In this document: positions 50,275 to 53,923 of the stretch, piece after piece | Layout of the letters: the number at the start of each line of letters is the position of its first letter | How positions within the stretch are numbered: position 1 is the first letter of the stretch | Assembly: GCA_002433895.1 (NCBI GenBank) | Contig: DJJA01000006.1 | Coordinates: 104,630 to 168,629 of the forward strand | DNA: 64,000 bases | Reading direction: 5' to 3' | DNA from: Candidatus Gottesmanbacteria bacterium UBA6580 | Lineage (GTDB): Bacteria > Patescibacteriota > Microgenomatia > UBA10105 > UBA927 | Position numbers and translations under genes: made by a program | Notes under the pieces: model-generated | Told to the model about the DNA's origin: nothing | What the model saw: only the letters and a program-made list of their open reading frames with translations | Databases searched by the model: none

Positions 50275-50760
50275 TTATACCTTACTTTGTACGCGCGGGG
50301 GTTGTCCTGCCATTATCTTGGTAACGATTTCATCTACCCGCTGCTCTGCCACTTTCCCTTTTGCGGAAACGATACGCTTCCCCTCAGGGTTTTTAGATAA
50401 ATACGAGCGCCATTCCTTGGCAGACTTGCGTATTTTACTCCGTTCCTTGGCGGCAGGACTTCTGCCAGAAAACATAACGATAATTGGCGCGTAAAACCAC
50501 AATTGGGTAAGTTTTGATAACGCGTGCCACCGCCCTTGATCACGGAAATTATCGTCTACCTGGCTCATTTTTTCCGGAGCGGCCAATTTTGCTCTCTCAA
50601 ATGCTTCCCACGACTCGCCGTACGGGATAGCCGATTGGATTTTGCCGATCTGCCGGACAACCTCCTTGGACACCGGGCCTGACGGATGAAACAGGTAATC
50701 GAGCTTTGCCTGGATACGTTCACCAAGGCTTGGTCTTCTGTACTCCGCGTTTTCTGCCAT
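50275..50760 (-). CDS. hypothetical protein
   Basis: Start taken at MAENAEYRR, 8 nt after the proS stop. Confidence 0.35.
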   Translation of the reverse strand: MAENAEYRRPSLGERIQAKLDYLFHPSGPVSKEVVRQIGKIQSAIPYGESWEAFERAKLAAPEKMSQVDDNFRDQGRWHALSKLTQLWFYAPIIVMFSGRSPAAKERSKIRKSAKEWRSYLSKNPEGKRIVSAKGKVAEQRVDEIVTKIMAGQPPRVQSKV

Positions 50761-50768
50761 ATAATTGG

Positions 50769-52217
50769 TTAGTATGACTGCCCGAACAGCCACCGGTGTA
50801 CGGCTGGCTTCCCACAGTGCACACACACTCCTTCTTCTTCAGGAGCAGTCAACGGCAGACAACGGGTGGCAGCCTTCGTCTTTTCCTTAATCGCAGCTTC
50901 ACACGGTGCTTCTTCGCACCAGAACGCCCGGATAAATCCACGGTTCGTTTTCATAATGTCCTCAAAATCAGAAAATTCAACGACATCACGCGTGTTGCTT
51001 TCCAGAAAATTCTTTGCCGTGGCGTAGAGCGATTTTTGGATATCCTCGAGCATTTTTTCAATTTTCGGGATCATTTCCCGCCGCTCTACGACAATCTTTT
51101 CGCCTGTATCGCGGCGCGCCATGGTCACCGTCCTATCAGTCATCTCTTTCATACCCACTTCCAGCCGCACGGGTACGCCTTTTACTTCCCATTCGTTAAA
51201 CTTGCGGCCGACTGACTGGCTATCCCGGTCGTCAAGCCGTGTGCGCACGCCCTGACCGACCAAGGCATCACGTATCTCGCCGCAATAATCCAGAAGTGCC
51301 TCACGCCCTTCATCGCCGCGCGAAATAGGCACTACCACGACCTGCGTAGACGCGATTTTCGGTGGCAGTACTAACCCGTTATCATCACCATGGGTGAGGA
51401 ACAACCCTCCCAGACTCCGGGTAGAAAACCCAAATGAGGTCTGCCAGACAAACTCGGAGGCTCCTTCGCGGGTCTGGAAAGAAATATTAAAAGATTTCGA
51501 GAAATTTTGCCCCAAGTTATGACTTGTCCCTCCTTGGAGTGCTTTGCCGTCCGGCATAAGTGCTTCTACCGTAAACGTGGTTTTGGCTCCGGCAAATTTC
51601 TCTGTTTCGCTTTTCCGTCCCATTATGACGGGTACGGCGAAATAATCCTCGTAAATCTGGCGGTACCAATCAAGCGCTTTCATCACCGTCGCCACGGCTT
51701 CTTTTTCGGTTTCATGGGCGGTGTGCCCCTCCTGCCATAAAAACTCAGTTGTCCGCAAGAAAAGATAGGTACGTTTTTCCCACCTGACTACGTTATTCCA
51801 CTGATTGATCAGGACCGGCAGATCGCGCCAACTATGTACCCATTTGGAATACATATCGTACATAATTGTCTCGGACGTCGGGCGGACAACCAGCGGATCT
51901 TTGAGTTTCTCGCCCCCTCCCACTGTTACCACCGCAAGCTCAGGGGAAAATCCTTCTACATGCTGCTTTTCTTTCTCGAGGAGCGACATGGGGATAAACA
52001 ACGGAAAATACGCGTTTTCGATACCCGCTGAACGCATCATACGGTTCAATGCCTCCTGTACCGATTCCCACAACGCATAACCATATGGTCGGATAACCAT
52101 ACAGCCTTTTACCGGGGCATAATCGGCTATCCCCGCTTTCAGTATGACGTCGGTATACCACGCAGATAAATCATCGCTTTTTTTCTTCAGTTCCTTTTTT
52201 TCGAATGCTGGTTTCAT
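50769..52217 (-). CDS. proS: prolyl-tRNA synthetase (archaeal/eukaryotic-type class IIa)
   Basis: Class II motifs 1-3, a C-terminal zinc-binding domain, and no editing insertion. Confidence 0.9.
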   Translation of the reverse strand: MKPAFEKKELKKKSDDLSAWYTDVILKAGIADYAPVKGCMVIRPYGYALWESVQEALNRMMRSAGIENAYFPLFIPMSLLEKEKQHVEGFSPELAVVTVGGGEKLKDPLVVRPTSETIMYDMYSKWVHSWRDLPVLINQWNNVVRWEKRTYLFLRTTEFLWQEGHTAHETEKEAVATVMKALDWYRQIYEDYFAVPVIMGRKSETEKFAGAKTTFTVEALMPDGKALQGGTSHNLGQNFSKSFNISFQTREGASEFVWQTSFGFSTRSLGGLFLTHGDDNGLVLPPKIASTQVVVVPISRGDEGREALLDYCGEIRDALVGQGVRTRLDDRDSQSVGRKFNEWEVKGVPVRLEVGMKEMTDRTVTMARRDTGEKIVVERREMIPKIEKMLEDIQKSLYATAKNFLESNTRDVVEFSDFEDIMKTNRGFIRAFWCEEAPCEAAIKEKTKAATRCLPLTAPEEEGVCVHCGKPAVHRWLFGQSY

Positions 52218-52293: not shown

Positions 52294-52629
52294 TTAATAT
52301 AATCTTCCTCCGACTATTGCATCATCTTTGTCCGGAACTATCAAGACGCACTCATGATTTTCATCTGGGACTCCAAGCGTAAGCACCTCAGACACAAACG
52401 GACCGATTTGACGGGGTGGGAAGTTTACGACCCCCAGCACTTTCTTTCCGATCAGCGCCTCTTTCGTATAGTATGTTACAAGCTGCGCGCTCGACCGTTT
52501 TTTACCTATTTCGCTACCGAAATCTATAGTGAGTTTATAGGCGGGTTTTCTCGCCTCGGGAAAATCGTCGACCGCCACAATAACACCAACCCGTATATCC
52601 AACGCCGCGAAATTGTCATACATAGCCAT
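52294..52629 (-). CDS. csaA: tRNA-binding protein CsaA (EMAP/Trbp111-like OB fold)
   Basis: 111 aa with the IRVGVIVAV...KKRSSAQLV pattern. Confidence 0.85.
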   Translation of the reverse strand: MAMYDNFAALDIRVGVIVAVDDFPEARKPAYKLTIDFGSEIGKKRSSAQLVTYYTKEALIGKKVLGVVNFPPRQIGPFVSEVLTLGVPDENHECVLIVPDKDDAIVGGRLY

Positions 52630-52843
52630 AATAAAACCCTCTCCTTACACAAATCAGGCAGTATTCCTGAAATGTAAGGGCGAGGGTAAATCCCGCGGTA
52701 CCACCTTACTTTTCGCCTCCGCCAAACGGCGGATTGCGAATCTTCATTTAAGCAGTCACGGGCTTTCCCGTCTCCGTTATTGGCGGAGCCACCTCTTATT
52801 CCGGTCGGATCTCGGAACGAACGTGTTTCACGTACAATCGATT
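52630..52843 (-). promoter_or_regulatory. T-box riboswitch leader (translational, RBS-sequestering type) upstream of csaA-proS
   Basis: The minus-strand RNA contains AAGUAAGGUGGUACCGCGGG, matching the T-box consensus AAUUAGGGUGGUACCGCGG at 16 of 18 positions including the invariant UGGUACCGCG. An antiterminator-type fold (GUAAGG/CCUUAC stem, 7-nt UGGUACC bulge, GCGGG/CUCGC stem) competes with a sequestrator helix ACCCUC...CCUUACA/UGUAAGG...GAGGGU that occludes the AAGGAGAGGG Shine-Dalgarno sequence. Confidence 0.75.
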
Positions 52844-52849
52844 ACTCAT

Positions 52850-52878
52850 AGTGTAGCCGATAACAAACCACCAGTCAA
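52850..52878 (-). promoter_or_regulatory. promoter for T-box leader: TTGACT, 17-nt spacer, TACACT (minus strand)
   Basis: The hexamers sit at plus-strand 52873-52878 and 52850-52855. Confidence 0.45.
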
Positions 52879-52894
52879 CGGGATCACCAACGCA

Positions 52895-53923
52895 TTAGTT
52901 ATCCGGCGAGTTGCCGCCATCACCATTATTGTTGCCATTATTATCATTGTTATCATCCTGCCTACCCTGATTGTTTCCGTCACTATTACTACGGTTATTG
53001 CCCCGCCCCTGATCACCGTTGTCCTCCCCGTCTTCCTGTTCCGTGATATCTGGCTGCGATGCTATAATCTCCAATTCGTCAATAACTTCCTGTATTTCGT
53101 CATCAACGTCCGTAATAGAGGTGTCGTTCACTACTCCCCCTGAGGGGGGTGCTACTACCACATCGGTGATTTGCTCCGCGATAGTTTCCGTCTCCTGCTG
53201 TGATACGCTCAGTTGCTCTGCGATTGCCTGAATTTCGGCCGATGCGGGGGCATTTGCCGGTTGGGCAGCTGCCTGTTGTTGCAATGCCCGTAACTGTTGC
53301 GCCTGAAGCGCGAGTTGCGCCTGTAATTGCTGTGACTGCTGTGACAGTGATTGCTGTGACTGCTGCTGCAATTCCGCTTGCAATGCTAATACCTGATCAA
53401 GCTGCATCTGTAGGTTGGCTTGTAATTGCTGTGCGCTTGTATCGGGAGCGAACTGCCGCTTTACGGGTTTTGCAGTAGGACGTGCCTTGGTCTTCACTTG
53501 TTGTGCTTTTAACTCATTGGAAACACCCTGCAGAGTCGTGATATATTGCTTGGCAGCTTCCCGTTTCTTTTCAACGGTCGGCGCCTTTTCAATCATGACC
53601 TTTGTCGCTTGCACCTGGGCGGAAAGCAGCGATAATCCTTCATAAGATTGCCGGCTTGCCAGTAATGTCTTTGCCTCTTCAAGCCTGCGCTTCGTATAGT
53701 GCGAATTGAGACTTGCCTGGGCGTCATATGAAGGTCTTGCCACAGCGAGCAACGTCTGCTCAAACGACCGCTTCACCCCGTACATCGTGTCGCCCGGCAA
53801 ACTACTCCATGATGCCATAATAAGGATGGTGGGAGCAGCAAATACAGCAATAAAACCCCAACTGAGGTAATCAAAAGCTTTGTTCACTACCCTAACAGTA
53901 AGCAATATCGTTACCGGTGTCAA
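52895..53923 (-). CDS. hypothetical membrane-anchored coiled-coil protein with Gln-rich and Asn/Asp/Gly-rich low-complexity tail
   Basis: N-terminal TM helix, a QQLQAQ coiled-coil region, and a C-terminus NNDNNGNNNGDGGNSPDN. Confidence 0.45.
   Translation of the reverse strand: MTPVTILLTVRVVNKAFDYLSWGFIAVFAAPTILIMASWSSLPGDTMYGVKRSFEQTLLAVARPSYDAQASLNSHYTKRRLEEAKTLLASRQSYEGLSLLSAQVQATKVMIEKAPTVEKKREAAKQYITTLQGVSNELKAQQVKTKARPTAKPVKRQFAPDTSAQQLQANLQMQLDQVLALQAELQQQSQQSLSQQSQQLQAQLALQAQQLRALQQQAAAQPANAPASAEIQAIAEQLSVSQQETETIAEQITDVVVAPPSGGVVNDTSITDVDDEIQEVIDELEIIASQPDITEQEDGEDNGDQGRGNNRSNSDGNNQGRQDDNNDNNGNNNGDGGNSPDN

Follow-up and report, generated by a model that had tools for sequence, protein, structure and literature searches.

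T-box riboswitches are the textbook example of an mRNA that reads a tRNA. Canonical transcriptional representatives include the leaders of Bacillus subtilis tyrS and glyQS and the proline-responsive leaders of proBA and proI; translational T-boxes of ileS with an ultrashort Stem I were reportedly recognised by Sherwood, Grundy and Henkin in 2015. The prevailing division of the family is between long-Stem-I switches that act on transcription, grabbing the tRNA elbow for speed, and short-Stem-I switches that act on translation and have been reported just for ileS in Actinobacteria. The ultrashort class, whose short Stem I carries the specifier in its terminal loop, is described as translational and as regulating ileS in every case (10.1101/2023.02.28.530422; PMC12990946), and actinobacterial ileS T-boxes of this kind are given for Mycobacterium smegmatis and M. 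tuberculosis (10.1101/2023.02.28.530422; PMC7583486). Full-text literature searches found no paper linking T-boxes to the Candidate Phyla Radiation (CPR) or to Patescibacteria, and pairing the term with CPR lineage names (Microgenomates and others) yielded no mention of a T-box among the matches listed.

Here we describe a leader that unites features from both sides of this division. It precedes csaA and proS, which encode a tRNA-binding protein and prolyl-tRNA synthetase (ProRS), in a stretch of 64,000 nt from Candidatus Gottesmanbacteria bacterium UBA6580 (contig DJJA01000006.1); this whole stretch is termed the window, coordinates refer to it, and all features located in it lie on its minus strand. 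The gap of interest (265 nt; 52630-52894) extends between the stop codon of a 342-aa open reading frame (ORF; 52895-53923) and the ATG of csaA (52629), and contains a T-box leader at 52828-52674, recognised by its match to RF00230. Judged from sequence, the csaA leader is a real and unusually small proline-sensing T-box, and it quite probably controls csaA-proS through termination, with occlusion of the csaA Shine-Dalgarno (SD) sequence as a secondary effect.

A preliminary description of this DNA had proposed a T-box here, and each sequence element it quoted is present at its position in the window. That proposal holds: RF00230 is the sole Rfam family matching the leader, and the T-box core is conserved with covariation in orthologous leaders. 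The match scored 37.2 bits over 52673-52830, with an E-value of 8.9e-7 in a search of 501 nt and of 1.1e-4 in a search of the entire 64-kb window. The gathering score of the family is 93, and the match emerges only at E-value thresholds; a default Rfam scan, applying gathering thresholds, returned just a tRNA and nothing at the csaA leader. The low score is explained by the tiny Stem I, the alignment placing 27 nt where the Stem I of the model has 90; the S-turn part of Stem II (GAA...AGUA) is likewise deleted. The 241-nt leader folds unusually well (-84.4 kcal/mol; z = -3.4), none of 200 shuffled sequences being as stable.

Relatives were sought in GTDB genomes scanned with ProRS and in metagenomes scanned with CsaA, which together provided 160 loci (designated by L numbers). 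Many of these have a T-box core 5' of csaA-proS, a gene pair kept in nine species-level genomes, and in L005 the T-box is directly upstream of proS. Twenty-three related leaders were found in contigs of Patescibacteria (CPR), their RF00230 scores (30-41 bits) all falling below gathering. Fifteen distinct leaders share the architecture of the window's leader (class A; 14 aligned, plus L005), and more distant variants are represented by L007, L011, L016, L018, L110, L122, L129 and L114. In L011/L098 (Ca. Woesebacteria RIFCSPLOWO2_01_FULL_39_10) the T-box, at 1399-1574 of L011, is followed by an ornithine cyclodeaminase gene (PF02423, 290 bits) and then by csaA and proS, an order that places an enzyme of proline synthesis in one regulon with prolyl-tRNA synthetase. 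Two further matches were set aside: that to GGUGGAACC in L086, which adjoins coding sequence, lacks the antiterminator helices A1 and A2 and is not matched by the covariance model described below, and that of the covariance model to the archaeal locus L051 (E 0.12), taken as noise.

Several of the loci (L002, L004, L005, L010, L012, L016 and L018) are titled "uncultured Gammaproteobacteria" or "uncultured Pseudomonadales" in GTDB records. The ProRS sequences of these genomes are up to 86% identical to that of the window, with which they have the csaA-proS synteny and the leader in common; the taxonomy of the records looks wrong.

Applied to full-length leaders, MAFFT misplaced helix P1 as well as the long Stem III of L097; a core alignment of 14 leaders was therefore prepared by trimming Stem III and the variable junctions by hand. 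Across this alignment 98.5% of cells at the proposed helices are paired and 16 of 29 pairs display double changes; slid alignments gave 30-45% pairing, and in none of 500 shuffles was the observed score reached. A covariance model built from the trimmed core was then used to align untrimmed sequences (n = 11), of which 97.4% of cells are paired and 17/29 pairs have double changes; L006, L082, L087, L091 and L097 were left out of this second alignment, their long Stem III inserts splitting the model match in two. The model scored the window at 72 bits and L005, which is outside the training set, at 95 bits. Compensatory changes occur in five of six helices, the exception being Stem IIA, which is too conserved to be informative. 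The comparison of orthologous leaders that the preliminary description had proposed thus finds the T-box core kept and compensatory changes in the antiterminator helices it had drawn. Unpaired positions that are invariant comprise the CCGA of the Stem I loop, a C and four A's in the Stem II loop, and the bulge UGGUACC.

These patterns bear on whether the element is a decayed, non-functional remnant or a chance resemblance, with the low Rfam score signifying lost function. Such an origin would suit a score of 37 against a gathering value of 93, and the missing distal platform of Stem I and S-turn of Stem II, yet it must contend with compensatory changes in five of six helices across 14-15 species-level variants, with an invariant specifier, Stem II loop adenines and UGGUACC, with a conserved promoter and terminator, and with a steady link to proline genes. 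We regard it as highly improbable.

The 5' part of the leader is organised around a short helix P1 (52825-52790), the base of Stem I, in which CAC (52825-52823) pairs with GUG (52792-52790) to enclose the Stem I hairpin through junctions GUUCG and UAAGAG. All three pairs of P1 covary (CG/UA/AU, GC/AU and CG/UA), and the helix measures 3-5 bp across leaders. Junction lengths vary widely, from 1 to 31 nt on the 5' side (a single nucleotide in L003 and L097) and from 2 to 28 nt on the 3' side, where an extra variable hairpin occurs in L001, L004, L006, L019 and L092; by-eye inspection of the P1/Stem I junctions showed no conserved tandem G-A (K-turn) motif. At the 5' end of the window's leader, the minimum-free-energy fold includes a small hairpin, ACGUG-AAA-CACGU (52832-52820), that overlaps CAC, the 5' strand of P1, and would compete with this helix; it is not conserved among orthologous leaders.

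Stem I itself (52817-52799) is ultrashort: five base pairs, UUCCG/CGGAA, closed by the terminal Specifier Loop AGAUCCGAC. The same design of 5 bp and a terminal loop occurs in all 14 aligned class A leaders and in L005, with covarying pairs (UUCCG/CGGAA, UCCUG/CAGGA, UUUCG/CGAAA). Specifier loops are of 9 nt (AGAUCCGAC) or of 7 nt (CACCGAA, CUCCGAA or CCCCGAA; NNCCGAA), and CCGA, which L005 also has, does not vary among the 14 aligned leaders, CCG being the sole triplet kept across both loop sizes. In the window this specifier CCG occupies 52808-52806 and is followed by A at 52805. The loops of distant proS leaders are CUCCUAA (CCU; L016 and L018), UUUCCGG (CCG; L007) and UUUCCCG (CCC/CCG; L011). 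Proline is the predicted specificity, the only amino acid fitting the loops and regulated genes of all leaders. CCG is also the commonest proline codon in the long ORFs of the window (283/720).

Of two specifier candidates named in the preliminary description, GAUCCGACC (52811-52803) proves to be the Stem I terminal loop with the invariant CCG and A. The other, AAUCCGCC (52735-52728), was rejected, being base-paired inside Stem III, a helix absent from six of the 14 aligned leaders and from L005. A reading of AUC in the loop AGAUCCGAC as an isoleucine codon was likewise discarded, as AUC is lost in the 7-nt loops and CCG retained. In these 7-nt loops the codon takes positions 3-5 and precedes a purine, as an anticodon does in an anticodon loop, and we infer that the specifier would be recognised through a loop-loop (kissing) interaction.

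Stem I is followed by a miniature Stem II (52788-52772), CUCCG/CGGAG, of 5 bp with the 7-nt loop CCAAUAA. Compensatory changes affect all five of its pairs, and its loop conforms to C-N-A-A-N-A-A, with no variation at C1, A3, A4, A6 or A7. Rfam aligns this hairpin at the Stem II position, where it stands in for the deleted S-turn segment. Next come Stem IIA and an F-box-like tail (52771-52752), composed of ACGGG-AAAG-CCCGU (52771-52758) and GACUGC (52757-52752), which Rfam aligns to Stem IIA/F-box (CGg..cCGUUA). Stem IIA is almost invariant among leaders, with an F-box-like CCCGUGA and a conserved RAYAGC motif followed by AAUGARR. No covarying partner for a IIB pseudoknot, nor any other convincing tertiary covariation, was found among the unpaired columns of the 14 sequences. 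Stem III (52740-52712; UUCGC...GCGAA) is flanked by purines, AAAUGAAGA (52749-52741), which include the conserved AAUGARR, and by AA (52711-52710). Its hairpin is present in the minimum-free-energy fold of the window, but the helix is optional, being missing in L002, L003, L004, L005, L083, L084 and L094 (six of the 14 aligned class A leaders, and L005).

The 3' domain contains the T-box sequence, AAGUAAGGUGGUACCGCGGG (52711-52692), and can adopt two exclusive folds. In the antiterminator (ON; 52709-52674), helix A1 pairs GUAAGG (52709-52704) with CCUUAC (52679-52674), the bulge UGGUACC occupies 52703-52697, and helix A2 pairs GCGGG (52696-52692) with CUCGC (52684-52680) across the loop AUUUACC. 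This structure matches the 3' end of RF00230 at high posterior probability; all five A2 pairs and the outer pair of A1 covary about the invariant 7-nt bulge. The alternative (OFF) is a hairpin at 52687-52636, ACCCUC-GC-CCUUACA-UU-UCAGG-AAUACUG-CCUGA-UU-UGUAAGG-A-GAGGGU, found in the minimum-free-energy fold, whose competing helix pairs 52687-52673 with 52649-52636 and takes the 3' half of the antiterminator as its 5' arm. Its 3' arm contains the csaA SD region, AAGGAGAGGG (52646-52637), paired in that fold, and directly 3' of the hairpin is the U-tract UUUUAUU (52636-52630), which doubles as the spacer between SD and AUG. The OFF hairpin is calculated at -26.7 kcal/mol and the antiterminator alone at -11.6 kcal/mol; for the whole 3' domain the values are -30.5 kcal/mol in the OFF fold and -18.5 kcal/mol with the antiterminator enforced, a computed gap that is the usual relationship between the two states of a T-box. 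Both folds, as first drawn by hand, are present in the window and conserved in relatives.

What the OFF hairpin does is a separate matter, and here the leaders of relatives are informative. Nineteen leaders, the window's among them, were folded over the expression platform. Each of the 19 has a hairpin (-15 to -33 kcal/mol) with a U-tract behind it, in most cases of 6-7 U (5-7 U in orthologs), and it is the structure of the hairpin that is conserved, since the inner stems are unrelated in sequence. In 11 of them (L002, L003, L006, L007, L011, L083, L084, L087, L091, L094 and L097) the hairpin is followed by the SD and start codon only after 20-160 nt and therefore cannot work by SD occlusion; by eye, the same hairpin/U-tract design with a downstream SD is found in L005, L016 and L018. 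The remaining eight (window, L001, L004, L019, L092, L110, L122 and L129) have a fused layout, in which the start codon is 6-7 nt past the first U and the SD is within the 3' arm. The preliminary description had called the window's switch translational and not of the terminator type; this finds no support in an element whose helix runs directly into UUUUAUU, and all 19 folded leaders retain a U-tract, 11 with the SD outside the hairpin. The OFF hairpin with UUUUAUU is, by sequence and predicted fold, an intrinsic (Rho-independent) terminator as usually defined, a stable hairpin containing G+C with a U-rich tract right behind it, and is predicted to terminate. Terminator-like sites are enriched in the window generally (37 versus 24.6 +/- 4.9 expected; 34 versus 21.1 +/- 5.1).

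A purely translational switch would have the helix at 52687-52636 do nothing but sequester the SD, which uncharged tRNA-Pro would free reversibly in full-length mRNA, as in actinobacterial ileS. The position of the SD (AAGGAG) inside the 3' arm, the interruption of the U-tract (UUUUAUU), and the fact that an ultrashort Stem I has so far been tied to translational T-boxes (10.1101/2023.02.28.530422; PMC7583486, section 6.2) are all in keeping with this scheme. It is difficult to reconcile with a U-tract of 5-7 U in every relative and an SD outside the hairpin in 11 of 19 leaders, from which termination must be the ancestral and prevalent mode, or with L087, where a tract identical to that of the window, UUUUAUU, is combined with a separate downstream SD. 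The gene arrangement also counts against it. The logical target, proS, starts 76 nt past csaA beyond an AT-rich spacer, its ATG lacks a recognisable SD, and it has no SD-level link to csaA, so that translational control of csaA alone would not obviously regulate proS and regulation of the synthetase calls for transcriptional control. We consider a purely translational switch unlikely.

Conversely, the switch might be purely transcriptional, the SD-like 3' arm being a by-product and the AUG immediately after the U-tract reflecting compaction of the genome and having no part in regulation. The 3' arm of the terminator must complement CCUUA/CUCG and is therefore inherently rich in AAGG/GAGG, that is, SD-like, as illustrated by L002, which has AGGAGAGGG in its terminator arm and its real SD 40 nt downstream; terminated transcripts would lack the AUG in any case, and CPR genomes are compact. 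However, the fused layout has appeared in at least two leader classes (window, L001, L004, L019 and L092; L110, L122 and L129), and, given the 12 kcal/mol by which the OFF hairpin exceeds the ON fold in stability, a read-through transcript should refold into the hairpin and hide the SD on departure of the tRNA. An inherently SD-like arm would also make the fused layout easy to evolve. A switch with no translational component seems to us rather doubtful, if somewhat less so than one with no transcriptional component. We conclude that termination is the probable ancestral and main read-out of these leaders, and that in the window the predicted hairpin also occludes the csaA SD.

Under this dual scheme, the nascent leader would fold into P1, a 5-bp Stem I showing CCG-A in its terminal loop, the 5-bp Stem II with its A-rich loop, Stem IIA and Stem III, and tRNA-Pro with anticodon CGG would pair with the codon of the Stem I loop. 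An uncharged tRNA would pair through its 3' ACCA with UGGU of the bulge and stabilise the weak A1/A2 antiterminator, and RNA polymerase would read through with the SD left single-stranded. With a charged tRNA, or none, the much more stable hairpin at 52687-52636 would form and, together with UUUUAUU, serve as an intrinsic terminator immediately 5' of the csaA AUG. Refolding of the full-length transcript would again bury the SD in the hairpin and so add a second, translational layer of control on csaA. The UGGU bulge implies that the tRNA sensed would have A73 as its discriminator base. We infer tRNA binding, the efficiency of termination and the share taken by SD occlusion from the leader sequences and their predicted folds.

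Several observations weigh against this scheme. The RF00230 score of 37.2 bits is far short of the gathering score of 93. Rapid capture of the tRNA by transcriptional T-boxes is held generally to depend on elbow contact through a long Stem I (PMC7583486, section 6.2), on which account an ultrashort Stem I would argue for translational control. The U-tract of the window, UUUUAUU, is with that of L087 the weakest of the set, and termination may be inefficient in the window, SD occlusion carrying more of the regulation. Finally, a tRNA-Pro(CGG) with A73 was not found in the 64-kb window or in 60 loci, the latter yielding unrelated tRNAs only; the one tRNA gene of the window is a tRNA-Leu(CAA) at 2686-2773.

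Two features of the terminators were noted in passing. In L003, L005, L006, L084 and L091 an alternative terminator is used, in which the palindrome GGUACC of the T-box bulge pairs with a downstream GGUACC (GGUGCC in L005) just ahead of the U-tract and the 3' strand of the antiterminator takes no part. In many leaders (e.g. L003, L006, L007, L011, L091 and L094), UUUUUUUGUGG or UUUUUUGAUGG very commonly comes directly after the U-tract, including in leaders whose real start codon is placed further downstream and in another frame.

Set beside canonical transcriptional T-boxes (RF00230), the locus has a promoter, a leader, an antiterminator/terminator switch, the T-box sequence AAGGUGGUACCGCG, a codon followed by a purine, and an intrinsic terminator with a U-tract, and its targets are a gene for an aminoacyl-tRNA synthetase and, in L011, one for amino acid biosynthesis. 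It departs from them in a Stem I of ~19 nt versus ~90 nt, in which the AG bulge and distal-loop platform of interdigitated T-loops, which in canonical T-boxes stacks on the tRNA elbow, are absent; in a specifier located in a terminal rather than an internal loop; in having no K-turn recognisable by eye and no S-turn; and in the A2 pair next to the bulge, which is G-C or A-U here and a conserved G-U wobble in canonical T-boxes. Minimal T-boxes of the glyQS type are likewise reduced and likewise use a G/C-rich codon (GGC in glyQS, CCG here) that makes a strong codon-anticodon duplex, a property invoked to explain how glycine T-boxes dispense with Stem II (PMC7583486, section 4.2). The reductions, however, differ, in that glyQS has lost Stem II and retains the elbow contact of a long Stem I, whereas the leaders described here have a shrunken Stem I and keep a vestigial Stem II.

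The preliminary description had also likened the element to the translational T-boxes of Actinobacteria, a comparison that applies to the ultrashort Stem I with its specifier in the terminal loop and fails for the expression platform, which by its U-tract and its relatives is of the terminator type. With the actinobacterial ileS T-boxes it further shares the want of an elbow-binding distal platform, a Stem II region and Stem IIA element after Stem I, a UGGN bulge in a two-helix antisequestrator/antiterminator and, in the window, a competing helix that contains the SD. In contrast to them, it belongs to CPR/Patescibacteria, carries a proline specifier (CCG) and precedes csaA-proS; its Stem II, of 5 bp, is capped by a CNAANAA loop and lacks an S-turn, and its Stem III is dispensable; and its competing helix is joined to a conserved U-tract, with the SD outside the helix in most relatives. 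As far as its sequence features allow it to be classified, the element is a T-box in core and mechanism, lacking several features of both the canonical and the ultrashort class.

A canonical T-box was encountered as well, in the metagenome contig Ga0209542_10020307 (L103, 2882-3176), with a long Stem I and an RF00230 score of 100 bits, above gathering. A csaA homologue lies immediately upstream of it; on its 3' side come a terminator and then three ORFs (98, 270 and 290 aa) that, by eye, resemble chorismate mutase, another enzyme of the aromatic pathway and prephenate dehydrogenase. Canonical and miniature T-boxes are therefore both to be found in CPR-like genomes.

What appears new, within the known kind of T-box, is the combination of an ultrashort Stem I, a terminator-type platform, proline specificity and a CPR host, united in the window leader and ~20 relatives in which Stem II is shrunk and Stem III often dropped. 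These leaders could constitute a previously undescribed minimal class of T-box in the CPR, with a terminator read-out, and CsaA could feed back on the ligand of the switch or serve ProRS as a cofactor in trans; we advance this proposal tentatively, judging its prospects to be somewhat less than even. Such a class may have a core of ~117 nt, a codon presented in an anticodon-loop-like loop of 7-9 nt, a 5-bp Stem II with four invariant adenines in place of the S-turn, and an optional Stem III. Were this so, a transcriptional T-box could work without the tRNA-elbow contact now held to be generally required for co-transcriptional capture of the tRNA. If functional, the element would be the smallest natural T-box aptamer, useful in structural work and in the engineering of tRNA sensors, and would challenge the kinetic argument for elbow contact. 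TBDB ran its short-Stem-I model on Actinobacteria only (PMC7778990), and Rfam misses these leaders at 30-41 bits against a threshold of 93, so that regulation of aminoacyl-tRNA synthetases in the CPR is probably under-annotated.

The co-regulated CsaA would bring a tRNA 3'-end binder under the same control as ProRS, and suggests a link between the two proteins. According to a recent structure, the Trbp111/CsaA OB fold binds the NCCA tail at the 3' end of tRNA (PMC11286949), the feature that is also read by the T-box bulge. The csaA gene (52294-52629) encodes 111 aa, a tRNA-binding OB-fold protein of the CsaA/Trbp111 family, identified by PF01588, by NF007495 (154.8 bits) and TIGR02222 (138 bits), both past their cut-offs, and by matches to CsaA chains of the PDB (E 7e-35 to 1e-35). 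The proS gene (50769-52217) encodes a prolyl-tRNA synthetase of 482 aa and of the archaeal/eukaryote-like type (family I), with PF00587, PF03129 and PF09180 and a TIGR00408 score of 589 bits. The enzyme shares 94% identity with its counterpart in Candidatus Gottesmanbacteria UBA5942, the next-nearest relatives being from other Gottesmanbacteria, Woesebacteria and Patescibacteria metagenome-assembled genomes. With both genes confirmed by profiles and no terminator-like site in the spacer between them, the csaA-proS operon put forward at the outset is borne out.

A consensus scan locates the promoter of this operon at 52878-52850, with a -35 element TTGACT (52878-52873), a 17-nt spacer and a -10 element TACACT (52855-52850); transcription would be expected to start near 52843, ~7 nt past the promoter. 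The assignment, made initially from the window alone, recurs in orthologous leaders, 16 of 17 of which have TTGAC-N16-19-TAnnnT at 15-45 nt 5' of Stem I. Of the neighbouring ORFs, the 342-aa protein encoded upstream (52895-53923) has no Pfam match; it has a hydrophobic segment at the N-terminus, a long middle part rich in Q and A and a low-complexity tail rich in N, D and G. At the other end of the operon, an ORF of 183 aa (50275-50826), also without a Pfam match, would, provided that its GTG start is genuine, share 58 nt with the 3' end of proS.

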